From: a virus
Length of the DNA: 64,000 nucleotides
Strand: one strand, 5' to 3'
IMG/VR virus record: IMGVR_UViG_3300036794_000042
Location: 9,465-73,464 of that record
The notes beneath the pieces are model-generated. The model made no database searches and was not told the DNA's origin. It saw nothing but the letters and a program-made list of their open reading frames with translations. Positions within the stretch are counted from its first letter, which is position 1. Every line of letters begins with the position of its first letter. Shown here in pieces: positions 3,564 through 46,265 of this stretch. Made by a program: the position numbers and the translations under genes.

Positions 3564-3855
3564 GCCAGCCTGGACCGGCATCGTGGGCGGCACCGAGACC
3601 CACGACGTGGACGAGCTGGTCGCGCTCATCACCCAGGCGTTTTTAGCTCATGCCGGGGTGGTGGAGCGCGGCTGGCTCTCCTACAGGTCACGATGCACCT
3701 GCGGCTGGCGTTCACGCCGCTGGAGGCGACATGTCAACGCGCAGTTTGACCTGGAGCATCACGCGGATATGCTGGGAGCCTGGAAAGACCACGATCCCGA
3801 TAGGAAAGAAGATCACGATGAGCATGACAGTGAGCGGCGACCGCCCGGAAACTGA
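3556..3855 (+). CDS. Hypothetical protein (CxCGW motif)
   Basis: GTG at 3556 overlaps the upstream stop; RCTCGWRS...LEH is a small-protein pattern common in actinophages. Confidence 0.55.
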   Translation: MAEPAWTGIVGGTETHDVDELVALITQAFLAHAGVVERGWLSYRSRCTCGWRSRRWRRHVNAQFDLEHHADMLGAWKDHDPDRKEDHDEHDSERRPPGN

Positions 3856-4039
3856 CCCGGTGCAGGTCGAGCGCGATGATCTCCAGTACCTGCTGGCCCA
3901 CGTCGCGGACGAGATGTACGGCGACCCGGACCCGGGGCACTGGAAGCTGCCGGTGATCACCAACGTGATCAACCGGCTGGCGAAGATCGCTAACGCAGAC
4001 CAGGCGGCCGGGACGGAGGCGGCCAGTGCCCACCCGTGA
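3818..4039 (+). CDS. Hypothetical protein
   Basis: AGGAAAG RBS before ATG 3818. Confidence 0.55.
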   Translation: MSMTVSGDRPETDPVQVERDDLQYLLAHVADEMYGDPDPGHWKLPVITNVINRLAKIANADQAAGTEAASAHP

Positions 4040-4247
4040 AGAGCGCGAGAAGCTGCTCGGTAACCTGGCCAAGATCCTGAGCGGCCTCCAGGTGCCGGTC
4101 AGCCTGGGCAGCGGCCTGCTGGGCCGGGACGTCACCGTAGCCTGGACCGAGGCGCACCAGGCCACGGCCGGATTCGGCTGGCACGATGCCGCTGAGTACC
4201 GCGAGGGACTGCGCAAGATGCTGGAGGTGCCAGCCGATGATGGATGA
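4026..4247 (+). CDS. Hypothetical protein
   Basis: GGAGG RBS, GTG start. Confidence 0.55.
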   Translation: MPTREEREKLLGNLAKILSGLQVPVSLGSGLLGRDVTVAWTEAHQATAGFGWHDAAEYREGLRKMLEVPADDG

Positions 4248-4599
4248 CAAGGATCTCCAGGATGAGCTGGCCCTGGCGATGGCGCAGAGCAGGATCGAGC
4301 GCGCCGCAGCGAAGCTGCCTGTCATCATCGACGCCAGCGCGATCGGCCCGAACGCCAGCAACAACGTCCGCAACCTGATCCTGATGCTGATCGACTTCGT
4401 GACCGAGGCCGAGAACTGGGACAGGTTCGCCGCGTTCATCAAGGACACCGCCGTACTCCAGGGCGGCCCGGACTTCGACCCCCGCGTGAGGCGGAAGCTG
4501 CTGGACTGGGTGACTGACCTGGACCTGCCGACCCTGATCGAGATCGCAACCCGGCTTATCGTCCCAGGTGAGAAGCCCGGGGAAGGGCCGCTGAACTGA
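4237..4599 (+). CDS. Hypothetical protein
   Basis: GGAGG RBS before ATG 4237; TGATG coupling to the next gene. Confidence 0.6.
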   Translation: MMDDKDLQDELALAMAQSRIERAAAKLPVIIDASAIGPNASNNVRNLILMLIDFVTEAENWDRFAAFIKDTAVLQGGPDFDPRVRRKLLDWVTDLDLPTLIEIATRLIVPGEKPGEGPLN

Positions 4600-4943
4600 T
4601 GAGCGACCCGAGAACCTGGGACAATAAGACTGGCCAGAATGAGTGGGAGCGGCTGGTCGAGGGCAACCGCGTGCGGATCTGCCAGGAAAACCTGGCTTTC
4701 CGGCTCCAGCAGGTGGGCAGCTACGCCCTGGCCGCCGCACAGCGGGAGATCAACGAGCTGAAGGCGCAGCTTGCCCTGGAGCAGGGCCATGCGGTCTGGC
4801 GCTGCATGGAGCGCGAGGTGGACGGCGTGATCGCTGAGATGGACAGGACGGGGGAACGCATTGAGCCCGGCACCGTCATCATGGCCACGGACTCGCGCAG
4901 GCGCTGGGTCTACAGCGATGATGACCACTGGCAGAGGCAGTGA
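4599..4943 (+). CDS. Hypothetical protein
   Basis: TGATG overlap; coiled-coil middle segment. Confidence 0.6.
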   Translation: MSDPRTWDNKTGQNEWERLVEGNRVRICQENLAFRLQQVGSYALAAAQREINELKAQLALEQGHAVWRCMEREVDGVIAEMDRTGERIEPGTVIMATDSRRRWVYSDDDHWQRQ

Positions 4944-5212
4944 TTCAGGGGGCGGTCGCGGTGGTCGCAATGCTCTGGCTGGTGATGGCGGGCAGACGCA
5001 AGCCGCCCGTTCTGCCATGCTCGGTGTGCCAGATGCCGCCCGACATGCACCACGCCCCGGGGTGCCCGATGCCGTGCCGGCTCTGCACCATGAAGGAGAG
5101 CTGGGTGCGCAAGCGGTGGGGCGAGCTGCGGCCGTTCCTGCCCTTCCTCTCGATCCTGGTGCTCGGCATCATCGCCGCCCTGCTGCTCATCTACCTGTTC
5201 GGCTCGGCCTGA
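4940..5212 (+). CDS. Small membrane protein with a Cys/His cluster
   Basis: Hydrophobic N- and C-terminal segments flank CSVC...HH.PGCP.PC..C. Confidence 0.6.
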   Translation: MIQGAVAVVAMLWLVMAGRRKPPVLPCSVCQMPPDMHHAPGCPMPCRLCTMKESWVRKRWGELRPFLPFLSILVLGIIAALLLIYLFGSA

Positions 5213-5315
5213 TCCATCTGCGGGGTGGCCTGCATCTTGCCCGGTGGGCGGTTGTAGGCCACTCCTGGCGCAGGAAGACGATACGCTGCATGAAGTGCGG
5301 CAAGAGCCGCATCAG

Positions 5316-5579
5316 GTGATCATGATCTGGACTAGGGACATCCTGGAGAGGCTATCCATGCCACTGGGCTGGGGCGCGGACCTGAGTACCGCCGAGAAGC
5401 AGGCAAGGGCGTCTGAGCAGGCCCGCAGGGACGCGGCCCGCAAGCTGCGCCGTGAGAAGCGCGAGCAGAAGGCTGCGGCCCGCCGTAAGCGCCGCGCCGA
5501 GAAGAAGATCGCCCGGGACAAGGTGAACAGCAAGAAGGCGTTCCGGCGTGATCAGAAGATCAACAAGAGACTGAGGTAA
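5316..5579 (+). CDS. Lys/Arg-rich basic protein
   Basis: RRDAARKLRREKREQKAAARRKRRAEKK; GTG 5316 or ATG 5322 start. Confidence 0.55.
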   Translation: MIMIWTRDILERLSMPLGWGADLSTAEKQARASEQARRDAARKLRREKREQKAAARRKRRAEKKIARDKVNSKKAFRRDQKINKRLR

Positions 5580-5989: not shown

Positions 5990-6354
5990 GCGCACCCTTC
6001 CACGTCAGGAACGTCACCGTTGACGCCACCGGAGCCTGGACCCAGGTCTTCCCCGGCATCCAGGCCCGCATACCGGCGACCCTCGGGCCGATGCGCACCC
6101 AGATCGAGGTCAAGATGGAGCCGGTCCCGGTGCGCACAGACATCCGGCCGCCCTGGGCGCAGCCCGAGCCTGAGCCCGAGCCCGAGCCGCAGAAGGTCTA
6201 CGTGGTCTGGGGCCGTCCCGGCCTTGGCGGCCAGCGTGACGTGGTGGTGCTGACCACGATGAGCGAGATCAGGGCGCTGCGGGCGGCTGGCGTGAAGGGC
6301 CGCTGGCTCCAGACGCTGGAGGTGGATGGCGATGACGAGCAAGAGGGACCGTGA
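5986..6354 (+). CDS. Hypothetical protein with a (PE)n linker
   Basis: ATGA overlap; QPEPEPEPEPQ. Confidence 0.6.
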   Translation: MSAPFHVRNVTVDATGAWTQVFPGIQARIPATLGPMRTQIEVKMEPVPVRTDIRPPWAQPEPEPEPEPQKVYVVWGRPGLGGQRDVVVLTTMSEIRALRAAGVKGRWLQTLEVDGDDEQEGP

Positions 6355-6664
6355 GGAAGAGGCCCAGTTCCAGGAGCTGAGGAACATGGGCGTCATCGGC
6401 CAGGCTGCGCCGGAGGGCGAAGACCCGCTGATGGGCGCGGTGCGCCGGGCTCAGGCGTTCCAGCGCGAGGCGGACGAGATCATGGCCGGTGCGGCTGGCG
6501 ACCCGCCGCCTAGCCCGCCAGCGCCGGAGCTAGTGGCCGGAGGCACGCACCTGGTGCTGGACTTCCAGACCGCTGAGCTGCGGAAGGAGTTCGAGAGCTG
6601 GATGAAGAGCACCGAGGTTGAGGGCGGCTGGCCATCGTTCGGCACCTGGAGGGACGCGCACTGA
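6326..6664 (+). CDS. Hypothetical protein
   Basis: GGAGG RBS; last gene before a terminator hairpin. Confidence 0.55.
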   Translation: MAMTSKRDREEEAQFQELRNMGVIGQAAPEGEDPLMGAVRRAQAFQREADEIMAGAAGDPPPSPPAPELVAGGTHLVLDFQTAELRKEFESWMKSTEVEGGWPSFGTWRDAH

Positions 6665-6670
6665 GCGAAC

Positions 6671-6714
6671 AGAGCCCGGCACAGCGAGCAAGATGTGCCG
6701 GGCTCTTTCCTTCC
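6671..6714 (+). terminator. Intrinsic terminator-like hairpin
   Basis: AGAGCCCGGCACA (6671-83) / TGTGCCGGGCTCT (6694-6706) 13-bp stem followed by TTCCTTCC. Confidence 0.7.
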
Positions 6715-6722
6715 CCAAGCGC

Positions 6723-6751
6723 GTGCAAAGGCGAAATCGCTCTGTTATCGT
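6723..6751 (+). promoter_or_regulatory. Putative SigA-type promoter for the LysM/Rpf gene
   Basis: GTGCAA-17 bp-TATCGT with an extended TG motif, right after the terminator. Confidence 0.5.
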
Positions 6752-6835
6752 CCGGGGAAGTCAGGCGCTGGCCCGGTTCCAGCCCCACCCCGAGGTAATG
6801 GCCCGGATCGCGCAACCTGCGAGCAAAGGATAGCT

Positions 6836-7567
6836 GTGTACCGTGCTGTTCTCTATGCCCTTTCAGCGGTAGTCCTGGTCTTTTTCGCACTGATGCCCCG
6901 GGCGGGTGTCACCCATGCACCACCTGGCATGGTCTTTGCCAGATACGGCCCCGGAAATGGCCCGGCAGCGGTCTCCAAGACGATCTCGATCCAGACGAGT
7001 TACAAGGTCAGGCAGGGCGACACCCTCAGCTCGATCGCCCGGCACGTCTACGGCCACGCCAGCCGGTGGCCGGCGCTCTGGTACACCAACCGCAAGAAGG
7101 TCCATAACCCGAACGCCCTGGACGCCGGGGTGACGCTCCAGCTCAGCGCCTGGCACCCGCGCAAGAGCTGGATCTTGCACAAGGCGCTCAACCACATCCC
7201 CAAGCCGCCGCCGCCACCGGCCCCGGCACCCGTCCAGGCAGCAGCGCCCGCAGCGGCCACGGCCGCGTCAGACGCCCAGCCCGCAGCAGACCCGGCACCG
7301 GCAGCCGCGCCAGCGGAGAACGTCTCCACGGCTGGCATGGGCAGCTTCCAGAGCTGCGTGATCAACGCGGAGAGCGGCGGCAACAGCCAGGTGATGAACA
7401 GCACCGGGCACTACGGCCTGTACCAGTTCAGCGCACAGACCTGGGCGGCGCACGGCGGCAACCCGGCTGACTTCGGCCATGCGTCGGTGGCCGAGCAGAA
7501 CCAGGTCTTCGCCAGCACCTATGCCCAGGACGGCACCAGCGACTGGGCACCCTATGACGGATGCTGA
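6836..7567 (+). CDS. Secreted LysM + resuscitation-promoting-factor (Rpf)-like transglycosylase
   Basis: AAAGGA RBS + GTG 6836; signal peptide/TM; LysM (YKVRQGDTLSSIA...NPNAL); Pro/Ala linker; Rpf-like core CVINAESGG...GLYQF...TW...EQ...W..C with catalytic Glu. Confidence 0.85.
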   Translation: MYRAVLYALSAVVLVFFALMPRAGVTHAPPGMVFARYGPGNGPAAVSKTISIQTSYKVRQGDTLSSIARHVYGHASRWPALWYTNRKKVHNPNALDAGVTLQLSAWHPRKSWILHKALNHIPKPPPPPAPAPVQAAAPAAATAASDAQPAADPAPAAAPAENVSTAGMGSFQSCVINAESGGNSQVMNSTGHYGLYQFSAQTWAAHGGNPADFGHASVAEQNQVFASTYAQDGTSDWAPYDGC

Positions 7568-7611
7568 CCAGCGGGTAGCCTGCTGACCAGTGTCCCTGCC
7601 AGCCAACCTCC

Positions 7612-7649
7612 GCAGGCCCGGCCCGATCCCCCGTGAGGGCCGGGCCTGC
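7612..7649 (+). terminator. GC-rich hairpin (terminator or processing site)
   Basis: GCAGGCCCGGCCC / GGGCCGGGCCTGC 13-bp stem between genes. Confidence 0.5.
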
Positions 7650-7669
7650 ACCCATCCCCGGGAGTAATC

Positions 7670-8473
7670 ATGGCATTCGAGATCTACGCAGGCGGCAGGA
7701 AAGACCCGCATCCCAATGAGACGCACCCGCGCGTCTACATTGACGATTTCTTCACGCCCAATTCTGAGATAGCGGTCCTGGACACGATCGACTACCTGAC
7801 CGGCGTCCAGTACACGATGGACTTGAACAACAGCCTGGGCGACTGCGGCATTGCGGGCATGGACCATTACCAGATGGCCATCAATTACTTCGAGAACGGG
7901 AATGCGCAGAGCTGGGGCGATTCCACCTGCATGAGCCTCTACGAAACGCTCGGCGGCTATGTGCAGGGCGACCCGTCCACCGACAACGGCACCGTGCTCC
8001 AGGACAACCTGGGCTGGTGGCGGAAGAATGACATCGGCGGTGACAGGATTCTGGCGTTCGGCCAGCTCCGCAATACCGACCGCGCCACCCGGCTCCAGGC
8101 ACTCCAGCTCTTCGGCCCCGGCTATATCGGCGGCCAGCTTCAGAACGCCCAGGAGCAGCAATTCCCCGGCCCGTGGGAGTGGGTGCCGGGCGGCTCCATA
8201 GCGGGCGGCCACTGCGTCACCTACGGGCGCGAGGTGCGCGGGCTCGACCAGGGCGGCCTGTCAAGCTGGGCCGCTGCGGTCCACTGCAATATGGCCTGGG
8301 TGCGGAACTTCCTGGCCCCGGCCGCTGGCGGCGAGTGGTGGTGCATCATCGACGGCAACTGGGTGAAGCGCAACGGCACCAATCCCCGGGGCTTCCGGCT
8401 GGCCGACCTGAACAGCGCGATCACCGGCCTGACACGCCAGGTCAACCCTCTGGGCTTGACTTCCCAGTTCTAG
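7670..8473 (+). CDS. Papain-like cysteine peptidase
   Basis: N..LGDC (Cys nucleophile), GGHCV (His) and downstream LSSW, the layout of papain-fold (C1-like) peptidases. Confidence 0.65.
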   Translation: MAFEIYAGGRKDPHPNETHPRVYIDDFFTPNSEIAVLDTIDYLTGVQYTMDLNNSLGDCGIAGMDHYQMAINYFENGNAQSWGDSTCMSLYETLGGYVQGDPSTDNGTVLQDNLGWWRKNDIGGDRILAFGQLRNTDRATRLQALQLFGPGYIGGQLQNAQEQQFPGPWEWVPGGSIAGGHCVTYGREVRGLDQGGLSSWAAAVHCNMAWVRNFLAPAAGGEWWCIIDGNWVKRNGTNPRGFRLADLNSAITGLTRQVNPLGLTSQF

Positions 8474-8532
8474 GGCACTACCGGGTCTAGCATCTGAGTC
8501 CTGAGACCAGAGCCGCCCAGTGAAGGAGCACC

Positions 8533-8955
8533 ATGTCCGAGCAGCCAGAGGGCCAGCCAGTAGAGCAGGGCCAGCCGGTCACCATCAACCCCGCTGGTGA
8601 GCGTGATGACGTCGCTCCTGGCGACTACTCGCCCACCGACCCGGAGGCGCAGCCGGTCGCGGGAGGCAACCCCGGGCTGAGCGACCAGCCGGGCTACCAG
8701 CAGGAGCCGCGCGGCTTCGGTGACGCCGTGGCCGGGGGCGACCAGGCCGTGTCCCCGATGGGTGCCAGCGCCTCCAACGAGTCGCCCAGCCTGCCGCCGA
8801 CCGCTGCCGCTGGCGCGGCACGGGCGCACGCGCTGCTCGGGCATTTCGTGGACGCCGCGCAGAAGATCCAGGCCGACCTGGCCCGCTACGTCCCGCAGTC
8901 CGCGCTGGACGCGGCCAAGGTCGAAGTGCAGGCCATGCTCCGAGAGATCATCTGA
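8533..8955 (+). CDS. Acidic, Pro/Gln-rich hypothetical protein
   Basis: GAAGGAG RBS; disordered N-terminus, helical C-terminus. Confidence 0.6.
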   Translation: MSEQPEGQPVEQGQPVTINPAGERDDVAPGDYSPTDPEAQPVAGGNPGLSDQPGYQQEPRGFGDAVAGGDQAVSPMGASASNESPSLPPTAAAGAARAHALLGHFVDAAQKIQADLARYVPQSALDAAKVEVQAMLREII

Positions 8956-8958
8956 GTC

Positions 8959-9684
8959 ATGGCAGGAGGGCGGACCTGGGAAGGTGACGTGCCGTGCCTG
9001 GGCGTCACCAACTCAGGCCGTCCCTGCGGTGAGAAGGAGATCGCGGGGCTCGAATACTGCCTGCACCACATCCCCGATGACCTGCTCGATGAGGCGGAAG
9101 AGATCACCGGCATCAGGCGGTGCAGGCACCGCTTCATGGAGGCCGACGCCTGCCGGTACTACGCCACCCAGGGCACCGAGCCGCCGATGTGCAAGAACCA
9201 CGGCGCGAACACCGGCAGCTACCAGTCCAAGATCGCGGCTGGCAGGGTGGTCGAGGGCCGCGCGGTGGACCGGCTGGCCGAGATCATGGCCGAGAACGGC
9301 GACCGGCTGCTGACCGCGCCGCCCGTGGATGACCCGCTGGGCGAGCTGCTGAACCTGGCCGGGGAGATCCGCGAGATGAAGGAGATCCTGCGCCGCGTCG
9401 TGGCCTACCTGTTCAGCCAGGACCGGGTGAGGTACGCGCACAACAAGATCGGTGAGCAGCTCCGGTCGGAGATCCTGCTTTACGAGCGGGCACTGGAACG
9501 TTATGCCACCATCCTGCTCAACATCGCCAAGCTGAACATCGCGGACCGGCTGGCCACCGTGGAAGAGAAGCAGATCCTGGCCATCGAGACCGCGCTGGAC
9601 AAGGCACTGAACGAGACCGGGCTGGACCTGGTGGGCCAGGACAAGGCCCGGAAGGCACTGCGGCGGCATCTCAAGGCGGCCTAG
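8959..9684 (+). CDS. Probable terminase small subunit
   Basis: Two Cys/His clusters (C.G.T.SG.PC...C.HH; C...A....C.NHG, HGG-type) plus helical C-terminus, two genes upstream of TerL. Confidence 0.6.
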   Translation: MAGGRTWEGDVPCLGVTNSGRPCGEKEIAGLEYCLHHIPDDLLDEAEEITGIRRCRHRFMEADACRYYATQGTEPPMCKNHGANTGSYQSKIAAGRVVEGRAVDRLAEIMAENGDRLLTAPPVDDPLGELLNLAGEIREMKEILRRVVAYLFSQDRVRYAHNKIGEQLRSEILLYERALERYATILLNIAKLNIADRLATVEEKQILAIETALDKALNETGLDLVGQDKARKALRRHLKAA

Positions 9685-9888
9685 ATGGCCGGCCGCCGCT
9701 CGGCGCACCGTGCGGTGGTCACCCACCTGGTCCTGGCGGTCACCTGGGCGCTGCTGATGGTGCCTACGCTGATCTGGTGGAAGACGTCGATCCTCTGGGT
9801 GGCCCTGATGAGCGGATACGCCAACATCGCCAGCCACTGGGGCGCGTACCAGGCATCACGATCGGAGCGGCGGATGGCTGATGACTAG
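9685..9888 (+). CDS. Small membrane protein
   Basis: Two hydrophobic segments in 67 aa. Confidence 0.6.
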   Translation: MAGRRSAHRAVVTHLVLAVTWALLMVPTLIWWKTSILWVALMSGYANIASHWGAYQASRSERRMADD

Positions 9889-11521
9889 CACGCTGCTCAA
9901 CCGGGTCGCGGACCGGATGGGCCAGCGCCAGGCCGACCCACGGCTGCGCTGGCGCGAGACCGCCCGGCCGGACCAGCTCCTTCCTGAAGGCGACTGGCGC
10001 GTCTGGTATGTCCAGGGCGGCCGTGGCGGCGGGAAGACCCGCAGCGGTGCCCAGGGGCTCGCGGACTGGCTGCTGAGCGACCCTGACGATGAGGGCGAGT
10101 ACGGCATCGTTGCCCCGACCTATGCTGACGCCTGGACCAAGTGCGTGGAGGGTGAGAGCGGGCTGCTGCGGGCGCTGGGCACGTCGATGAAGGAAGTGAA
10201 GGCGCACACCAGCCGGACGGTGAAGAACGCCTGGCGGACCTACGGCCAGGTGATCCTGCACAGCGGCCTGGTGGTCTACATCGACAGTGCGGCCGAGGGC
10301 GGGCTGCGCATCCAGGGCCGCAACCTCAAGGGCATCTGGTGCGACGAGATCGGGCTCTGGCTGAACTGGGAGACAGCCTGGAACGAGTCGATCAGGTACG
10401 CGGTCCGCATGGGCATCTCCAGGATCATCGCCACGGCCACGCCCAAGGCCAGTCGCCCGGCCCGCAAGCTGATCAGGTCCCTGATCAAGAACGACAAGCA
10501 GCATGGCGGCGTGGTGATCACCAAGCTGCGCACCATCGACAACGCGGCCAACCTGTCCGATGCGTTCCTGGCGGCCGTGGTCGGCGCGGCCGAGGGCACC
10601 AGGCTGGAGCGCCAGGAGCTGGAGGGCGAGCTGCTGGACGATGTGGCCAACGCGCTCTGGACCCGCGACCTGCTGGAGGGCATCCAGGTGCCCGACGTGG
10701 GCGAGGAAGGCGGCCCGCCGTACCTGCGCAACTGCGTCATCGGGGTGGACCCCTCGGACGGCAACGAGACCAGCGATGAGCAGGCATACACCGTGATCGG
10801 TGAGGGCCTGGTGGATGACGGGAAGATCTACGTCGCGGAGAGCTGGGGCGGGCAGATGGCCCCGGCCCAGTTCGCCCGGCTGGTGATCAAGCGGGCGCTG
10901 GCCTGGAATGCGGCCATCGTGGTGGAGAAGAACCACGGCGGTGAGTGGCTGAAGGCCACGTTCGTGCAGGTCATGAAGGACATGCAGGAGGAAGGGCTGT
11001 TTAAGGAGGGCCGCCCGCCGCTGCGCATGATCCACGCCAGCCAGGCCAAGCGGACCCGCGCCGAGCCCGTCTCCGCGCTGTATGAGCGGGACATCGTGCG
11101 GCACTGCCAGCGGATGACGCGGCGGCCGTGCGATTGCAAGGACAAGATCCACAAGGCCGGTCACCTGGTGCCCGACACCAACCTGCCCGAGCTGGAAGAC
11201 CAGATGGCCACGTTCACGGGTGCGGCTGGCGAGCGGAGCCCGGACCGGCTCGACTCGCTAGTGTGGGCGGCCACGCCGTGGCTGAAGAAGACGTTCGGCA
11301 AGCCGCCCAAGGGCGGCGTGCGGCAATGGGCAGCCAAGGCCGAGCTGGAGGCGGTCGGCGGACGGCCGCCATCCAGGGCGGGGCGGCGGCTGGCCCAGGC
11401 GCACAACGGTGTCTATTCTGACGCTGACAAGGCTTGGGATCTTGATGACTTTGCCCCGCGTGGCCAGGAAGATGAGGCTGTCCCGGCTGGCAAGCACGGC
11501 AACATCCGGTCCTGGAGATAA
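9881..11521 (+). CDS. terL: Terminase large subunit
   Basis: Walker A GGRGGGKT, Walker B WCDE, nuclease IGVDPS, C-terminal SPDRLDSLVWA. Confidence 0.95.
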   Translation: MTSTLLNRVADRMGQRQADPRLRWRETARPDQLLPEGDWRVWYVQGGRGGGKTRSGAQGLADWLLSDPDDEGEYGIVAPTYADAWTKCVEGESGLLRALGTSMKEVKAHTSRTVKNAWRTYGQVILHSGLVVYIDSAAEGGLRIQGRNLKGIWCDEIGLWLNWETAWNESIRYAVRMGISRIIATATPKASRPARKLIRSLIKNDKQHGGVVITKLRTIDNAANLSDAFLAAVVGAAEGTRLERQELEGELLDDVANALWTRDLLEGIQVPDVGEEGGPPYLRNCVIGVDPSDGNETSDEQAYTVIGEGLVDDGKIYVAESWGGQMAPAQFARLVIKRALAWNAAIVVEKNHGGEWLKATFVQVMKDMQEEGLFKEGRPPLRMIHASQAKRTRAEPVSALYERDIVRHCQRMTRRPCDCKDKIHKAGHLVPDTNLPELEDQMATFTGAAGERSPDRLDSLVWAATPWLKKTFGKPPKGGVRQWAAKAELEAVGGRPPSRAGRRLAQAHNGVYSDADKAWDLDDFAPRGQEDEAVPAGKHGNIRSWR

Positions 11522-12345: not shown

Positions 12346-12380
12346 GCAGGGCGCGTCTCGCTATGAGGCGCGCTCTTGCT
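12346..12380 (+). terminator. Imperfect hairpin closing the Lsr2-domain insert
   Basis: AGCA-GGGCGCGTCTC-GCTAT-GAGGCGCGCTC-TTGCT. Confidence 0.4.
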
Positions 12381-12396
12381 GCTCTATCCTGCGGTC

Positions 12397-13980
12397 ATGG
12401 CTGCCCGCGACCCGCAAACTGCCCAGGTTCTGGCGTTCCCCGACCTGAAGCCTGCCACCAGGCGCGAGATCCTGGGCAAGGAGCTGGGCACCCAGTTCGA
12501 CATGTCCAACCGGCTCTTCGCCTACTTTGGCGATGGGGATGTCTTCGATTACGGCGAGTGGACCAGCCGTGACATGAAGGGGATGTTCCGCCGCGACGGC
12601 ATCTGCCAGGCCATCGAGTCCGTGCTGACCCTGCCGATCCGTGAGGCTGACTACACCATCGAGCCGGCCAAGGGCGACCAGGGCGAAGCGGAGCTGGCCC
12701 ACTCGGTGATCATGACGCCGGACGCCTTCGGCGGGATGCAGACCCCGGTCAGTGAGCTGGTCGGCCAGATCACCTCAGCCCAGGTCTACCGCCGCGCCTT
12801 CTTCGAGAAGGTCTGGAAGATCCGCGAGGATGACGGCGCGGTGATCTACGACAAGCTGGCGTTCAGGCCGCCCGCGACCTGCCAGGCGAAGTACACCGAC
12901 CGGGGCGGCGTGCCGAACGGCTTCCGCCAGCAGGTCTGGCTGTTCGGCGGGAATCTCAAGACGCTGAGCACGCAGAAGGTGCCCGGCTACGTGGACATCC
13001 CCAAGGTCCGCAGCTACATCTACACCCACGGCAAGCACAGGGAGCCGCTGACGGGTGTCTCAGAAATGGACGTTGCCTACTGGTGCTACCAGACCAAGAT
13101 GAAGATCCTTTATCTCTGGTACCACTTCCTGGAGAACCAGGCCCTGCCCAGGGTGATTGTCTACGGCAACGACCAGCCAGAGGCGAACACCCGCGCCGAT
13201 GACATCGCGGCGCTGAAGAGCAGCGGCGTGGTCGGCATCACTCATCCCGAGGCGGGCCAGAAGGCATTCGACGTCATCGAGAACAGCGGGGACGCGGGCA
13301 AGTTCTTCCTGGACGCGCTCGGCTTCCTGGAGGGCTGGCAGACCCACTCGGTGCTGGCCGGATTTATGGCGCTGACCGGCTCCGCAACCGGGGGCAAGGG
13401 CAGCTACGCCCTGAGCCAGGACCAGAGCAGCTTCTATCTCAAGAGCCGCCAGGGCGTCGCCAAGGAGATCGCCAGCTCGATCACCCAGGATGTGCTCACC
13501 CCGCTAGTCGCGGTCAACTTCGGCCCGAGGGCGGCGTTCCCGCGCTGGAAGTTCGGCCCGCTCCAGGATGAGCAGATTCAGGCGCTGCTGACGCTGTTCG
13601 GCCAGATGAGCGCCGCGCCCGTGCTGCACGTCCCGCTGCCTGTGTTCGACCTGATCACCGAGCGGATGGCCACCATCCTCCAGCTCGATGTGGACCAGGT
13701 GCATGAGGCGCTGGTCAGCACCGCCCAGCAACGTGCCGAGCAGCTACAGGCCAGCGCGCCACCGGGGATGCCGCCCAACGCGGCTAACTCGATCGGGGCG
13801 CTGAACGGGATGGCCGGGGCTGCGGCTGGCATGATGCAGCGCGCCCAGGCCGGCCAGAACCCGCTGCCGAACGCGCCCAGCAAGACCACCTCGCTGCCAG
13901 CAGTCACGCCCAATGGCGGCGGCCCGCCAAGGCCGCCAGCCAAGCCGCCGATGGTGCCGCCACCCGGGCAGATGGCGTGA
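12397..13980 (+). CDS. Portal protein (DUF935 / Mu gp29-like)
   Basis: First structural gene after TerL; 527 aa; D..C..IE..L..PI...DY.IEP, FFEKVW and GS.AL..DQ patterns of DUF935 portals; Pro-rich tail. Confidence 0.85.
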   Translation: MAARDPQTAQVLAFPDLKPATRREILGKELGTQFDMSNRLFAYFGDGDVFDYGEWTSRDMKGMFRRDGICQAIESVLTLPIREADYTIEPAKGDQGEAELAHSVIMTPDAFGGMQTPVSELVGQITSAQVYRRAFFEKVWKIREDDGAVIYDKLAFRPPATCQAKYTDRGGVPNGFRQQVWLFGGNLKTLSTQKVPGYVDIPKVRSYIYTHGKHREPLTGVSEMDVAYWCYQTKMKILYLWYHFLENQALPRVIVYGNDQPEANTRADDIAALKSSGVVGITHPEAGQKAFDVIENSGDAGKFFLDALGFLEGWQTHSVLAGFMALTGSATGGKGSYALSQDQSSFYLKSRQGVAKEIASSITQDVLTPLVAVNFGPRAAFPRWKFGPLQDEQIQALLTLFGQMSAAPVLHVPLPVFDLITERMATILQLDVDQVHEALVSTAQQRAEQLQASAPPGMPPNAANSIGALNGMAGAAAGMMQRAQAGQNPLPNAPSKTTSLPAVTPNGGGPPRPPAKPPMVPPPGQMA

Positions 13981-29929: not shown

Positions 29930-32900
29930 GTGGCATTTGATGCTGGTGCCATCGTCGCCCGCGCCTCCATCGACCAGGCGCAGTTTGACCGCGACCTGCA
30001 CGACCTGGACACCAAGGCCAGGAAGTTCGAGCGCGAGCCCCGGACGCTGAAGTTCAGGGCCGTGCTCGACCAGGCCAGCCTGTCCCATGCCCGGCAGATG
30101 TTCCAGCAGCTTGACCGGCAGATCAGCCAGGACGCTTCCCAGAGGATGAAGAGCGGGTCTGGGAGCATCCTGGGCAGCCTGAACAGCCTCTTCAGCACCA
30201 GCCAGATCTCCGGGGCTCCTTCCGCCAGCCAGGCGGCCAACCAGGGCCTGCTGGGGCGTGTCCTGAAGCAGCAGGTCATCGTCTCCGGCCAGGGCGGCTC
30301 AGGCGGCGGGGGCATCGGTGCCGGGCGGCTGCTGAGCGGGACGGCTGGCGGTATCGGGCCGGGCATCCTCGGGCTCGGTGCCAAGGTGACCGGCATCGCG
30401 GGCCTTGGCGGCTCCCTGCTCGGCGCGCTGCCGACCGTGGGCGCGCTCGGCGCGGGCATCGGCACCATCGGCGCTGGTGCCCTGGCCCTGTTCAGCGGCA
30501 AGAACAACCCGCTGACCAAGGAACTGAAGAGCACGATGGAGAGTGCTCTCAAGATCGTTAAGGAAGCGGCCGGCCCGCTCATCAAGCCGATCATGGACGC
30601 CCTCAAAGGGCTGGTCCCCTTCCTGCACCAGATCGAGCCGGAGCTGCACAAGCTGTTTGCCGGGGCAGCTCCCCTGGTCAAGCCCCTGATCGGAGCCCTT
30701 GAACAGCTAGTCAAGGGGCTCCTTCCCGGCCTGGTGGCCATCCTGCACGCGGCTGGCCCGGCCTTTAACACGTTTGCCCAGGTCATGGGCTTGATAGGCC
30801 GCGATCTTGGCGGCCTGTTCAAGGCTCTCGCGCCCGCCATCCGCGAGAGCGACGTGATCTTCAAGGCGCTGTTCTCGGCCCTCGGTGCCCTGTTCCCCAT
30901 CGTGGGCAAGCTGGCAGCCGTCTTTGCCAAGACCCTGGCCCCGGTCTTCCCCGTGCTGGCCAACCTGATCAAGCAGCTAGAGCCGACCCTGACCCTGGTG
31001 GGCAAGATCATTGCCCAGCTCGCGGGGGCCGTGCTCGGTGATCTTGTGGCGGCCTTCCAGGCCATCGTCATCCTGGTCAAGGGCATCACGCCTGCCCTGA
31101 ACCAGCTTGTGGGCGTGTTCGGCCAGATCTTCAAGGTGCTGGAGAACGCTGGCGTCTTCGCCATCCTCGGTGACGCCCTGGAGGCCGTGGCCAAGCCCCT
31201 GGCCCGGCTGATCTCGGCGCTGATCCGTGGCCTGGCCCCGGCCTTGCCCGGCATCGTCCGGCTGGTGGGCTCCCTGGCCGGCATCCTGGTCAGGGTGCTG
31301 GCGGCTGGCATCTCGGCCCTGATCCCGCCGCTGATCCAGTTCGTCAACCTCATCTTGAAGTCTCTGGCCCCGATCCTGCCGCCCATCGAGAAGGCCCTGA
31401 CCCAGCTAGGGCGGGCCATCGGCGCGGCCCTGGTGAGTGCCCTCAAGGCGCTGCTGCCCAGCCTGGCCAGCCTGGTCCTGTCCCTGCTCAAGATCGTCGT
31501 GGCGCTGCTGCCCATCCTGCCGCCGCTGGTGCAGCTCGCGGCCATCCTGATCGAGCTGGCCCTCAAGGTCATCTCGCCGCTGTTCCCGCTGCTCGGCCTG
31601 CTGGCCCGGCTCATCGCGGACATCATCACGCCCGTCGCGGACCTGCTGGCCGCCATTGTCAAGTTCTCCACGCAATGGAAGCATAGCTGGGCTGATATTA
31701 AGCAATGGGCGTCTGACGCCTGGCATTTCATCTGGGACGGATTCGGCAAGTTCCTGCTGCCGCTGCTCGGGCCGGTCGGCCTTATTGCCCTGGGTGCGAT
31801 CGAGCTGGCCAAGCACTGGCACCAGGTGCTGAGCGACGTCAAGGGCGATGCCAGTGATGCCTGGCAGCACCTGGTGAGCTGGGGCGATGACATCCGCCGC
31901 CTGTTCACCAACACTATCCCCGGCTACTGGGATGACTTCTGGAACTTCACCAAGAACCGGCTGATCAACCCCCTTAAAAACGGCTTCGATGACCTGATCA
32001 ACTGGGTACACAACCATTTCGTCCAGCCAATCCAGAACATATTCACCAACACCATCCCGAACGCCTTCCGCACCTTCATCGACATCGCGGGCCGGGTGAT
32101 GACCCGCATCGAGGATGCGGTCAAAGGCCCGGTCAACTGGGTGATCACCCATGTGCTGGACGGGCTGATCGGGGCGTTCGACTGGATCTCGGGCAGGATC
32201 GGCGGCCCGCACATCCCCAAGATCCCCGCCCTCGCGGCTGGCGGGAAGATCACCCAGGGCACGCATGAGACCGCCGATGACGTCCTGATCAGGGTGTCCA
32301 AGGGCGAGACCGTGCTGTCCGGTATGCACTCGCGGCTGCTGGCCCCGTTGCTCGGCATGGCCGGTGTGCCCGGCTACGCCACGGGCGGGCGGGTCGGCCA
32401 GAACCCTCCCGGGCACACCGGCAACCCGCACCTGCCGCACGGTGAGCCCAACCCGGGCGGCGGCGTCGGCGGCTTCCTGGGCGGGCTGTTCCACAAGATC
32501 GCGGACGTCGGCAAGATCATCGCCGCCATCACCACCGGGAACAGCAAGGCGCTGACCAACGCCATCGTCAACATGATCCCGGGCGGGGTAGGCGGCGCGA
32601 TCGGTGATATGGCCGCCGTGCTCCAGGACATCCCGCGCAAGCTGATCGGTGATGCCGTCAAGGAGCTGATCGGGCTGGGCGGCGGGCTCGGCGGCAACGG
32701 CGGCGAGATCGTCAAGTACGCCATGTCCTTCCTGGGCAAGATCCCCTATGTCTGGGGCGGCACGGCGGTCCCGGGCGGGGCGGACTGCTCGGGATTCGTG
32801 CAGACCATTTACCGGCACTTCGGCATTGACGCACCGCGCACCTCGGAAGCCCAGGGCTCCTGGGTGAAGCGCGGCCCGCCCGTCCCTGGCGGCCTGGCGT

Positions 32901-33640
32901 TCTACCACTCCCCGGCTGGCGGGGCCGACCCTGGCCACGTCGCCATCGTGCGGGATGCCAAGTCGGTCATCAGCCAGGGCGGCGGGATGGGTCCGCAGCT
33001 CATCGGGCTGCACGCGCTGCCGCTGCTCTGGACCGGCGCACCGCCAGGCGGCGGGCTGGCCGGGCGGGGCGGCCTTGGCCGGGCCGGTCTGCGCTGGCTG
33101 GAAAACCTCTGGATGGGCGCTGGCGGCCCTGGCGGCGGGGTGGCCCACATCGCGGCGGCCATCGCGCTGGCCGAGTCAAGCGGCCGGACCAACGCCATCA
33201 ACCCTTCAGGTGCCTCTGGCTTGTGGCAGATACTCGGGCAGGTGGTACCGGGCAACATCTTCAACCCGCACATCAACGCCCTGAACGCGGTGAAGAAGTG
33301 GAGAGACGCGGGTGGCTTCAGCCCGTGGGTGACCTGGACAGACGGCCAGTACCGCCAGTTCATGGACAAGGGCGGCTGGATGCAGCCCGGAGGCGTCTAC
33401 AGCAACGCGCTCAGCCAGCCGGAGGCAGTGCTGACCCCGCCGCAGTCCCAGGCGTTCATCTCGCTCGCGGACGCGGCCCAGCACTTCAGCCGTGGCGGCG
33501 GGGCCACGGCAGGCGGGACACTGATGCGGGACGTCTACCTGACCCTGCCGGAGGGCACCACCGTGGCGCAGGCCATGCAAGAGATCAAGTTCCAGCTCAA
33601 GGTGGCTGAGCTGCAAGGCTTCGCGGGGGTGACTCCCTGA
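29930..33640 (+). CDS. Tape measure protein with NlpC/P60 and lytic transglycosylase domains
   Basis: 1236 aa; amphipathic and W-containing repeats; YVWGG...DCSG...GHVAI (NlpC/P60); AIALAESSG...N.SGASGLWQI...W (SLT-like). Confidence 0.92.
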   Translation: MAFDAGAIVARASIDQAQFDRDLHDLDTKARKFEREPRTLKFRAVLDQASLSHARQMFQQLDRQISQDASQRMKSGSGSILGSLNSLFSTSQISGAPSASQAANQGLLGRVLKQQVIVSGQGGSGGGGIGAGRLLSGTAGGIGPGILGLGAKVTGIAGLGGSLLGALPTVGALGAGIGTIGAGALALFSGKNNPLTKELKSTMESALKIVKEAAGPLIKPIMDALKGLVPFLHQIEPELHKLFAGAAPLVKPLIGALEQLVKGLLPGLVAILHAAGPAFNTFAQVMGLIGRDLGGLFKALAPAIRESDVIFKALFSALGALFPIVGKLAAVFAKTLAPVFPVLANLIKQLEPTLTLVGKIIAQLAGAVLGDLVAAFQAIVILVKGITPALNQLVGVFGQIFKVLENAGVFAILGDALEAVAKPLARLISALIRGLAPALPGIVRLVGSLAGILVRVLAAGISALIPPLIQFVNLILKSLAPILPPIEKALTQLGRAIGAALVSALKALLPSLASLVLSLLKIVVALLPILPPLVQLAAILIELALKVISPLFPLLGLLARLIADIITPVADLLAAIVKFSTQWKHSWADIKQWASDAWHFIWDGFGKFLLPLLGPVGLIALGAIELAKHWHQVLSDVKGDASDAWQHLVSWGDDIRRLFTNTIPGYWDDFWNFTKNRLINPLKNGFDDLINWVHNHFVQPIQNIFTNTIPNAFRTFIDIAGRVMTRIEDAVKGPVNWVITHVLDGLIGAFDWISGRIGGPHIPKIPALAAGGKITQGTHETADDVLIRVSKGETVLSGMHSRLLAPLLGMAGVPGYATGGRVGQNPPGHTGNPHLPHGEPNPGGGVGGFLGGLFHKIADVGKIIAAITTGNSKALTNAIVNMIPGGVGGAIGDMAAVLQDIPRKLIGDAVKELIGLGGGLGGNGGEIVKYAMSFLGKIPYVWGGTAVPGGADCSGFVQTIYRHFGIDAPRTSEAQGSWVKRGPPVPGGLAFYHSPAGGADPGHVAIVRDAKSVISQGGGMGPQLIGLHALPLLWTGAPPGGGLAGRGGLGRAGLRWLENLWMGAGGPGGGVAHIAAAIALAESSGRTNAINPSGASGLWQILGQVVPGNIFNPHINALNAVKKWRDAGGFSPWVTWTDGQYRQFMDKGGWMQPGGVYSNALSQPEAVLTPPQSQAFISLADAAQHFSRGGGATAGGTLMRDVYLTLPEGTTVAQAMQEIKFQLKVAELQGFAGVTP

Positions 33641-44162: not shown

Positions 44163-44456
44163 ATGTTCGCCAACCAGAACAGCGCACCCAACATCGCGGC
44201 GGCTGCGGCCACGATCCTGCGCAACCTGCGGGACGCCATCGCGGAGGAAGAGAAGTTCTATAAGTGGCTGTCTGAGCAGACCGATACGGATCTGACGAAC
44301 GCGGGCTTCACCGACCCGCAGGACATCGCCTTCCTGCGCAGCGCGTTCACCGACCAGCACAATCTGTTCACCATCGCCTACGGCGGCCCGGTGCCGCAGG
44401 GCGTCACGCTGCCAACCGACTTCACCGCGAACGCCACACAGGTGATCGGGGTCTAG
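44163..44456 (+). CDS. Hypothetical protein (possible fibre chaperone)
   Basis: AGGAG RBS; follows the fibre gene. Confidence 0.6.
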   Translation: MFANQNSAPNIAAAAATILRNLRDAIAEEEKFYKWLSEQTDTDLTNAGFTDPQDIAFLRSAFTDQHNLFTIAYGGPVPQGVTLPTDFTANATQVIGV

Positions 44457-44845
44457 CGGGTCACCGGGATGCCGTAGAACTTCGCCCAGTGCAGCAGCTT
44501 GCCGCTCGGCGGCGGCAGCGACCCGCAGCCCTTGCCGATGTAGCTGTTCCGGTTGTTGACGATGTACGTCACGATGAGCTGGCTTGGTGCCGTGGCCGGG
44601 GGAGTAGTGGCCGGCTCGATGAGAGCGATCTCCCTGATGGCCGCGCAGTCGGCGGTGATCTCCATCTGCTGGCGGGACAGCAGCAGCCCGCCGACGATCA
44701 GCGCGATCAGGACCACGGCCGCCAAGGCCGCCACCCCGTACCAGCGCAGCCGGTGGAAGGTCTTCACGGTGTGCCGGAGCTGTTCATCCAGCTCGGCCAC
44801 CGGCTTCGGCTCGGGAACTTCCGGGGTCGGCTGGAAGCTGCTCAT
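44453..44845 (-). CDS. Single-TM membrane protein (lysis-cassette type), inverted
   Basis: TM WYGVAALAAVVLIALIVGGLLL, two Cys in the C-terminal domain; coupled by ATGA overlap to 44842..45285. Confidence 0.65.
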   Translation of the reverse strand: MSSFQPTPEVPEPKPVAELDEQLRHTVKTFHRLRWYGVAALAAVVLIALIVGGLLLSRQQMEITADCAAIREIALIEPATTPPATAPSQLIVTYIVNNRNSYIGKGCGSLPPPSGKLLHWAKFYGIPVTR

Positions 44846-45285
44846 CCTGCCTCCGCTGCGGAGATCTGGGTGGCGATGCCCTGGACCACCTGGAGGATGC
44901 GGGCGCTCTGCTCGATGCCAGCGGCCAGCCGGGCATCCATCGCCTCCACGGCGCTGCGGCCGGTCACCATGTCCTGGAGGGTGGAGATCTGGCCGCGCAG
45001 CTCAGCGATCTGCCGGTCCTTCTCGGCCATGCTCTCGCCCAGCTTGATGATCTGGTCATCCTGGGTCTCAATGTGAGCGTCCTGGGCCTTGGATTTGGCC
45101 TCCCACGCTTCGGCAGCCTGCTTGTAGACCGCCACGGTCTGCGTGTTCCTCTGAATCTTCCAGCTCCCGCCCGCGATGCCAGCCGCAGTGACCAGGAACG
45201 TGAGAACCGCAATCAGGGTCAGGACAAGGCTGCCGCTGAAGGTGATGCCTCCAGACGCAACAGCAACGGCCAGCCCGGTGATCAC
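44842..45285 (-). CDS. TM + coiled-coil protein (lysis-cassette type), inverted
   Basis: N-terminal hydrophobic segments, then heptads (IKLGESMAEKDRQIAELRGQISTLQ). Confidence 0.65.
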   Translation of the reverse strand: MITGLAVAVASGGITFSGSLVLTLIAVLTFLVTAAGIAGGSWKIQRNTQTVAVYKQAAEAWEAKSKAQDAHIETQDDQIIKLGESMAEKDRQIAELRGQISTLQDMVTGRSAVEAMDARLAAGIEQSARILQVVQGIATQISAAEAG

Positions 45286-45371: not shown

Positions 45372-46265
45372 ATGACGATCCAGACATTCGATGTAACCGG
45401 GGCAGCCAGCGCACAGGGCCTGGACGTCTCCAACTTCCAGGGCCGGTTTGACTGGGCCGGGGCTAAGAAGAACGTGCCCAATCTCGCCTTCGGCATCCAC
45501 CGGCTCACCCAGGGCCTGGGCACGCCGGGCACCAACTCGCCGGACCCCGATGCGACCTGGAACCACCAGCAGATCACTGCCATCGGCATCGACCGTGGCG
45601 CGTACCACTTCATGGACCCGCGCGAGGACGGCACCAAGCAGGCCAACTACTTCGTCACCAACCTCCAGAAGGTCGGCCTGCGCACCACGGACATCCTGAT
45701 GCTGGACAACGAGACGGCTGGCAGCACGCCGGCCACCACGGCCCAGGTGGCCCGGGACTTCATGAACCGGCTGGACCAGCTCTGCCCGCACAACCCGCGC
45801 GGCGTCTACACCTTCATCAGCTTCGCCAACGAGGGCAACTGCGCCGGGCTCGGGCACTATGACCTCTGGCTGGCCTTCCCGAACCTCACCGCGCCAGCCG
45901 CGCCGCCGCCGTGGCTGGGCTCGATGTTCAGGTTCTGGCAGTGGGGCCAGCGCCGGGGCACCGACGCGGACGCCTTCATGGGCACCGTGAGCCAGCTCAA
46001 GACCTGGATCAACAAGTTCCAGCCCGCGCCGCCGCCGCCAGCTCTCAAGCCCAACCCGGACGGCAGCTTCACGATGGACGGGCACACCACCCTCCGCAGC
46101 TTCGCCCATGCCCACGGCAACACGGTGCTGGGCGTCATGCTCGACACCATCAAGGCCAAGGGCGGGGATCTAGGGCCAGGGCAGCGGGACCTGTTCAGCG
46201 CCCTGGTCAACTCCGGCAGCGTGGCGGACGAGAAGATCGGCCAGGGCACCGAGCTGTGGCCCTGA
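45372..46265 (+). CDS. Endolysin, glycoside hydrolase family 25 muramidase
   Basis: GLDVSNFQG, GAYHF, LDNE (DxE), LWLA, FWQW and DAD motifs; Pro linker plus C-terminal domain. Confidence 0.9.
   Translation: MTIQTFDVTGAASAQGLDVSNFQGRFDWAGAKKNVPNLAFGIHRLTQGLGTPGTNSPDPDATWNHQQITAIGIDRGAYHFMDPREDGTKQANYFVTNLQKVGLRTTDILMLDNETAGSTPATTAQVARDFMNRLDQLCPHNPRGVYTFISFANEGNCAGLGHYDLWLAFPNLTAPAAPPPWLGSMFRFWQWGQRRGTDADAFMGTVSQLKTWINKFQPAPPPPALKPNPDGSFTMDGHTTLRSFAHAHGNTVLGVMLDTIKAKGGDLGPGQRDLFSALVNSGSVADEKIGQGTELWP

Follow-up and report, generated by a model that had tools for sequence, protein, structure and literature searches.

A predicted exported LysM–Rpf-like wall enzyme at the probable head of the packaging operon in an uncultured soil actinophage

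Why should a phage with an endolysin of its own also encode a secreted enzyme resembling the resuscitation-promoting factors (Rpfs) of actinobacteria? The question is raised by a gene at positions 6836–7567 of a 64,000-nucleotide stretch of viral DNA (positions 9,465–73,464 of IMG/VR record IMGVR_UViG_3300036794_000042; the whole stretch is referred to as the window). An earlier note, made from the letters of this DNA, described the product as a stand-alone LysM–Rpf muralytic enzyme with which infected cells would convert dormant neighbours into susceptible hosts or remodel their own wall. Dormancy is the usual state of soil bacteria, and a phage depends on hosts that are active. A wake-up wall enzyme carried by a phage is therefore a natural candidate for a viral means of controlling how active the host is. 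The identity of the 243-residue protein is secure and its benefit to the phage is inferred; the reading tentatively preferred is an accessory enzyme acting on the wall of the infected cell itself.

The window belongs to a 74,957-base record rated 99% complete, and its large terminase (9881–11521), portal (12376–13980) and tape measure genes bear out the phage origin that had been supposed. The gene of this uncultured soil actinophage lies on the + strand in a frame that is open from 6695 to 7567, and its 243 residues are encoded as follows.

6836–7567, + strand: coding sequence of a predicted exported LysM–linker–Rpf-like peptidoglycan glycosidase (open reading frame, Pfam, alignment and model)
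6845–6895, + strand: hydrophobic export signal or membrane anchor, residues 4–20 (mean Kyte–Doolittle hydropathy 2.62 over 17 residues)
7001–7144, + strand: LysM peptidoglycan-binding domain, residues 56–103 (Pfam PF01476, 23.3 bits)
7199–7333, + strand: Pro/Ala-rich linker, residues about 122–166 (translation; predicted local distance difference test, pLDDT, below 70; 80% GC)
7337–7564, + strand: Rpf-type lysozyme-like catalytic domain, residues 168–243 (PF06737 and model)
7355–7357, + strand: Cys174
7370–7372, + strand: Glu179
7562–7564, + strand: Cys243

This layout agrees with the signal peptide, LysM domain, Pro/Ala linker and Rpf-like domain that had been read from the translation. The assignment is carried by the catalytic domain. 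PF06737 (Transglycosylas), the Pfam family proposed as a check, matches residues 175–238 with 38.7 bits (cut-off 27). Glu179, Cys174 and Cys243, the catalytic glutamate and two cysteines picked out earlier, are invariant in an alignment of 74 sequences, and practically every viral copy retains them. When a profile of 18 relatives was compared with solved structures, Mycobacterium tuberculosis RpfC, RpfE and RpfB had the closest catalytic domains, and in pairwise alignments with all three Glu179 (NAESGGN) coincides with their catalytic Glu (QCESGGN). The same three proteins are the best PDB matches of the C-terminal domain in an AlphaFold2 model built from the 74 sequences (pLDDT about 90 in both domains), with TM-scores of 0.65–0.77, root-mean-square deviations of 1.5–2.2 Å and 31–41% identity over 66–71 residues. 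The phage protein and the M. tuberculosis enzymes (PF06737) have in common the fold, the aligned catalytic Glu of the ESGGN motif and export signals.

The catalytic domain differs from these Rpfs in its cysteines. In the M. tuberculosis proteins a Cys directly precedes the Glu (CESGG), whereas the phage protein has Ala there and carries a LysM domain on the N-terminal side. The canonical pair, consisting of this Cys and that of a WPxCG motif near the end, is absent; the alternative pair consists of Cys174, five residues upstream of the Glu, and Cys243, the last residue of the chain (YDGC). The NCBIfam RpfC equivalog scores 30.3 bits against a cut-off of 200, which is below the threshold for an RpfA–E orthologue. 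On this score and the Cys pattern the domain is classed with an Rpf-like variant subfamily, and not as an orthologue of RpfA–E or of any other tested Rpf.

The LysM assignment (23.3 bits against a Pfam cut-off of 20.9) is matched by a β-α-α-β fold in the model (strand 55–57, helices 64–72 and 75–84, strand 100–102; pLDDT 93–95), with Kbp/YgaU-type domains as the closest solved structures. PHROGs matches to the protein include 'endolysin' and 'transglycosylase' families, the match to the 'transglycosylase' family phrog_4602 extending over the LysM and catalytic regions alike. A secreted Rpf domain, a low-complexity linker and LysM are likewise combined in Micrococcus luteus Rpf and in the LysM-containing Rpfs of non-mycolate actinomycetes (PMC1084345); in the phage protein this order is reversed, with LysM first, and the catalytic domain belongs to the variant subfamily.

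Whether the protein is exported depends on where it starts. The GTG at 6836 is preferred over the alternatives because of a well placed ribosome-binding site, the conservation of this site in five relatives and the aligned signal peptides of homologues.

6825–6830, + strand: Shine–Dalgarno sequence AAAGGA, 5 nt 5' of the GTG at 6836

The Shine–Dalgarno sequence and the start position are kept in the five relatives although the coding sequences differ: GAGCAAAGGATA stands directly 5' of the start codon in five of the six related phages (the window phage included; four of the five relatives) and GCAAAGGATA in all six. Two other starts were considered and rejected. The ATG at 6929 is not preceded by a Shine–Dalgarno sequence and would lose the conserved signal, and the GTG at 6695 falls within the upstream hairpin described below. 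The public gene call of the source record begins at this internal ATG 6929, giving 212 residues from which the export signal is omitted. Several close database relatives (177–197 residues) are likewise cut short at the N-terminus, which hides the predicted export of the family.

The N-terminus has a single Arg (Arg3) followed by the 17-residue hydrophobic run, and full-length-coverage homologues show signal peptides that align with it. Locus comparisons were made over 80 viral and 79 bacterial loci; when the open frames upstream of each match were read, a charged-then-hydrophobic N-terminus was found in nearly all of them, so that export by N-terminal signals is predicted to be conserved across the family. 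The n-region (Arg3) and h-region (residues 4–20) are in place, and the sole AxA-like site, THA/PP, carries Pro at +1. Proline at this position blocks signal peptidase I, and the signal may therefore be an uncleaved anchor. It does not resemble a signal–anchor–release (SAR) segment, only five of its 17 residues being small and its mean hydropathy being 2.6. With this strongly hydrophobic segment and a separate GH25 endolysin in the genome, the protein does not look like the SAR-type endolysin acting only at lysis that the earlier note had listed among the refuting outcomes.

The gene is not the oddity of one phage. Relatives were found on no fewer than 107 contigs of IMG/VR, and the proteins that match number more than 3,000 overall. 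The Rpf-like gene emerges as a fixed feature at the start of the packaging genes of a large set of uncultured actinophages. It lies 0.3–4 kb upstream of a terminase gene and/or adjoins a homologue of the window gene at 7670–8473 in at least 35 of the 80 viral loci, whereas neighbours of either type are found beside none of the 79 bacterial copies. The terminases at these loci are 56–64% or 25–32% identical to that of the window. In a tree of the LysM-to-end region (a quick method on a short alignment) the window copy falls in an all-viral group of six with a support of 98 (SH-aLRT, Shimodaira–Hasegawa-like approximate likelihood-ratio test); diversity is greater among the viral copies than among the bacterial ones sampled, and the grouping of the viral copies does not track the type of terminase. 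This diversity, together with the mismatch with terminase type, suggests a fixed slot at which Rpf-like alleles are exchanged. The architectures found in the slot also differ and include proteins with two LysM domains, a helical region in place of LysM or a C-terminal NlpC/P60 fusion.

The nearest bacterial homologues, with 44–54% identity, are found in uncultured Streptosporangiaceae/Trebonia genomes, which points to this group as the host. These chromosomal 'LysM + transglycosylase family' proteins have an architecture identical to that of the phage protein, and the phage genes probably derive from genes of this kind. The chromosomal copies differ in standing in housekeeping contexts, never beside a terminase, a papain-like peptidase or a small NlpC/P60 gene among the bacterial loci compared. 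In one Trebonia genome (L161, 8001–8789) the homologue lies between a hisF-type gene and hisI/trp genes. The GC content and third-position GC (GC3) of the window gene equal those of its genome, arguing against a recent import.

Among cultured phages the likenesses are more distant. Megablast of positions 6000–9000 found no match in them, and tblastn with the full-length protein returned LysM matches only. The catalytic domain alone gives weak matches both to tape measures, of Gordonia and Mycobacterium phages, and to separate genes (E 0.007–0.06 for the latter). Rpf-like motifs are known from within mycobacteriophage tape measure proteins, for example that of TM4, where they are a part of the virion that acts at entry; the product of the window gene is instead a predicted exported non-virion protein, and the tape measure of this phage bears NlpC/P60 and SLT_3 domains in place of an Rpf motif. 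The earlier statement that phage Rpf motifs occur inside tape measures is incomplete, since stand-alone secreted genes are already annotated in cultured phages. These are gp102 of the M. abscessus prophage prophi79-1 ('resuscitation-promoting factor', between terminase and portal), gp46 of Rhodococcus phage Weasels2 ('transglycosylase') and gp21 of Streptomyces phage Gilson ('hydrolase'), and all three have signal peptides. Unlike the window protein, prophi79-1 gp102 and Weasels2 gp46 lack LysM and show the canonical CESGG...WPxCG pattern. What is new here is the conserved slot and a phage-specific pairing with NlpC/P60 endopeptidases. No functional test of a stand-alone phage Rpf gene was found in the literature searched.

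The DNA around the gene bears on how it is expressed. The earlier note had assigned it its own promoter and flanking hairpins, and three features are relevant.

6671–6707, + strand: upstream terminator-like hairpin with a 13-bp stem, followed by a T/C-rich tail (−31.1 kcal/mol, z −4.1)
6743–6751, + strand: extended −10-like box TGtTATCGT (TGn + TAnnnT), candidate promoter, conserved in relatives
7612–7649, + strand: downstream GC-rich hairpin of 13 bp with a 12-nt loop and no U tract (z −3.0)

The hairpins stood up well, neither being equalled by any shuffle (0 of 200 for the upstream one). The upstream hairpin, which terminates the preceding gene (ending at 6664), has a counterpart at the same place in the five related phages. 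A terminator scan called neither hairpin because the T run that it requires is absent. The promoter fared less well: a consensus σ70 scan called none upstream of 6836, and what remains is the −10-like box, kept as cTG(t/c)TAnnnT in the six related phages amid otherwise diverged DNA. Their upstream alignment has a common order of hairpin, about 35 nt, −10-like box, a leader of about 80 nt, ribosome-binding site and start. The six comprise the window (6665–6835) and loci L014, L039, L052, L060 and L072. The Rpf-like coding sequences behind these six upstream regions fall in different branches of the tree.

From this conservation the upstream DNA appears to be a genuine regulatory region, and the −10-like box is a candidate promoter of the Rpf-like gene and probably of the packaging operon too. 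The motif CTGTTRWC gave no link between the box and the leftward early promoters. Some bacterial rpf genes are controlled by a ydaO/c-di-AMP riboswitch; an Rfam search of 6400–7900 at a permissive threshold found no family and in particular not this one. The gap between the downstream hairpin and the ATG at 7670 is only 20 nt long and has room for no more than the ribosome-binding site GGGAG, so that the peptidase and terminase genes beyond it probably rely on read-through. Given such read-through, the Rpf-like gene would be the first gene of the packaging operon, which it probably heads, and not an insulated insert. A TAnnnT at 7577, 5' of the downstream hairpin, is probably a chance occurrence, though conceivably a second promoter.

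The genes that follow the Rpf-like gene in relatives suggest a partner. In 34 of the 80 viral loci, against none of the 79 bacterial ones, the Rpf-like gene is followed on the same strand, at no more than 700 nt, by a gene for a small NlpC/P60 endopeptidase; over this sample the pairing appears to be specific to phages. Four of these endopeptidase genes were read, and all four encode a signal peptide. Examples from the 34 loci are the following.

L043, 6651–7127, same strand as the Rpf-like gene: NlpC/P60 gene
L048, 7006–7446, same strand: NlpC/P60 gene
L080, 6650–7135, same strand: NlpC/P60 gene
L014, about 6940–7380, same strand: NlpC/P60 gene

In L042 the two activities are fused in a single frame of 476 codons. 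In some relatives a gene for a protein with a single transmembrane segment directly follows the Rpf-like gene, in two of them preceding the NlpC/P60 gene, an arrangement that resembles a lysis cassette. The pairing recalls that of bacterial Rpf with RipA, itself an NlpC/P60 protein, although the window phage is without such a partner. The synergy of Rpf and RipA in peptidoglycan hydrolysis is established, PMC8269222 citing Hett et al. (2008) for it.

In the window the next gene encodes a different peptidase.

7670–8473, + strand: papain-like (C1/C39-like) cysteine peptidase without a signal peptide (phrog_19005; ESM Atlas)

Its product has no Pfam match and, in PHROGs, matches only phrog_19005, a family of unknown function. 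It contains the motifs GDCG around Cys59 and GGHC around His181, and the ESM Atlas gives a feature score of 0.98 to 'Peptidase C39-like' and TM-scores of 0.67–0.71 to Peptidase_C1 clusters. The protein thus looks like a papain-like cysteine peptidase of a mostly viral family. Its homologues adjoin the Rpf-like gene in 12 viral loci, and in L031 the Rpf-like, NlpC/P60 and papain-like genes are consecutive, making it a possible partner of the Rpf-like enzyme.

The Rpf-like protein is, judging from domain matches, the third wall enzyme of its phage, after one for entry and one for lysis. The tape measure (29930–33640, + strand) carries NlpC/P60 (residues 939–1015) and SLT_3/SLT (residues 1070–1135) domains near its C-terminus. 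A GH25 endolysin without a signal is encoded at 45372–46265, adjoined on the opposite strand by two transmembrane-protein genes at 44453–45285; this holin-like lysis cassette is 38 kb from the Rpf-like gene, as had been noted in describing the gene as far from it. No tyrosine or large serine recombinase was found in the 99%-complete record, which gives no sign of lysogeny. Canonical endolysins are also retained in related complete genomes: the GH25 family profile matches two of four (one clearly, one weakly), and in a third a region scan identified an Rv2525c-like glycosidase with PG_binding_1 after the tail fibre gene. The Rpf-like module would therefore be an addition to the lysis enzyme and not a replacement for it. 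In G004 no endolysin was identified within the stretch examined, the window GH25 protein used as a query matched nothing in the related genomes, and Amidase_2 was not found in any of the five genomes examined.

Of the functions that could be proposed, the one tentatively preferred is that of an accessory, wall-bound, exported glycan-cutting enzyme, encoded at the head of a packaging/late operon, that loosens the infected cell's own wall. An Rpf-type enzyme cleaving glycan strands would be exported by the Sec system, retained on the wall by its LysM domain and perhaps tethered by an uncleaved signal anchor. Its gene would be the promoter-proximal member of a transcription unit running on into the peptidase, the small and large terminase and the portal. 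During infection the enzyme would nick the wall of the infected cell from the outer face of the membrane, in cooperation with an exported NlpC/P60 endopeptidase where relatives encode one. It would thus supplement the holin and GH25 endolysin, making release through the thick actinobacterial wall easier, as a phage version of the bacterial Rpf–RipA principle. Inferred in this scheme are the activity of the enzyme, its export, its timing, its action in cis and a benefit to lysis.

Action on the producer's own wall is favoured by the LysM domain, the possible uncleaved anchor, the NlpC/P60 pairing in relatives and the position at the head of the packaging operon, and the coexistence with a canonical endolysin in the same phage supports an accessory role. 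According to a conference abstract (PMC12908700), two mycobacteriophages were reported to require host Rpfs in order to lyse and replicate optimally. Several points weigh on the other side. A lysis role would be redundant, since GH25 with two transmembrane proteins and the NlpC/P60 and SLT domains of the tape measure are already present. Rpf domains are weak bulk lysins. The host-type −10 box could mean early instead of late expression, and the window phage has no exported NlpC/P60 partner, its only NlpC/P60 domain being that of the tape measure.

A different purpose can also be imagined for an enzyme acting on its producer, in which Rpf activity would sustain the wall turnover and growth of the infected cell, or end its dormancy, and so permit replication. 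Soil actinobacteria are often dormant, the domain is of the Rpf-like family and the host-type −10-like box could possibly be read at once by host RNA polymerase. In Rhodococcus infected by phage WC1 the host rpf genes are up throughout, for which the authors suggest a phage-driven prevention of dormancy (PMC10986025); this induction and the report that Rpf-deficient mycobacteria are poorer hosts for two phages (PMC12908700) both fit such manipulation. A dormant cell, however, would first have to transcribe, translate and export the enzyme. The gene stands at the head of the packaging genes and not among the leftward early genes, the endopeptidase pairing suits hydrolysis as well as it suits signalling, and none of the tested Rpfs is an orthologue of the domain. 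Manipulation of the host's state in cis is on these grounds considered unlikely, while remaining the most serious competitor of a wall-loosening role. The broader proposition, that soil actinophages use an exported Rpf of their own, in many cases accompanied by a RipA-like endopeptidase, to break dormancy either in the infected cell or in dormant neighbours and spores, is distinctly unlikely. If it were true, phages would help to set the active fraction of soil actinobacteria.

Less probable again is the form in which the wake-up idea was first put, namely that enzyme released by infected cells, through secretion or lysis, rouses neighbouring dormant cells or spores and thereby adds to the supply of susceptible hosts. 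Very small amounts of Rpf do suffice to act on dormant actinobacteria (PMC1084345, PMC10569661), the phage product is predicted to be exported and would be freed at lysis in any case, and the gene family is retained in many soil phages. However, the LysM domain, and perhaps the uncleaved anchor implied by Pro at +1, would hold the enzyme on the wall of its producer, competing phages would share the benefit, and the Cys pattern is unlike that of a canonical Rpf.

It is very unlikely that the protein is the main endolysin of the phage, whether Sec-exported, as Lys44 of Oenococcus phage fOg44 is, or of the SAR type. Like Lys44 and P1 Lyz it is a muralytic-type enzyme whose N-terminus bears an export signal; SAR-like segments rich in Gly/Ala/Ser/Thr occur in several distant viral relatives, and transmembrane-protein genes lie nearby in relatives. 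Lys44 and P1 Lyz, however, are the lysis enzymes of their phages, whereas here a signal-less GH25 endolysin stands beside two holin-like transmembrane genes elsewhere, at 44.4–46.3 kb. The related complete genomes also have GH25 or the Rv2525c-like glycosidase with PG_binding_1, and the segment in the window protein is strongly hydrophobic, with 5/17 small residues. That the gene is a moron, or a lysogenic-conversion gene serving the host when expressed by a prophage, is hardly credible: the layout of hairpin, promoter-like box, gene and hairpin, the host origin of the family and the Rpf gene of prophage prophi79-1 would suit one, but the record has no tyrosine or large serine recombinase, the composition of the gene equals that of the genome, its position in many related phages is fixed and not patchy, and the downstream hairpin leaves no promoter room for the next gene.

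Should the enzyme prove to be merely an aid to lysis, it would show phages of thick-walled filamentous actinobacteria supplementing the holin–endolysin scheme. The Rpf-like and NlpC/P60 pair forms a clear unit for testing, for which cultured analogues exist in Weasels2, Gilson and prophi79-1.

Two further observations concern the genes between the papain-like peptidase and the large terminase.

8959–9684, + strand: gene for a 241-residue protein with a Cys/His-rich N-terminal region (weak zf-C3Hc3H match), directly 5' of the large terminase gene

Homologues with 36–58% identity occupy the same place in at least 16 related phages, and the product is probably the small terminase or a DNA-binding protein of packaging. 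In L052 an extremely Pro-rich protein of 584 residues (3627–5381) is encoded between the Rpf-like and terminase genes, and its C-terminal 60 or so residues resemble the C-terminus of the product of the 140-residue window gene at 8533–8955.

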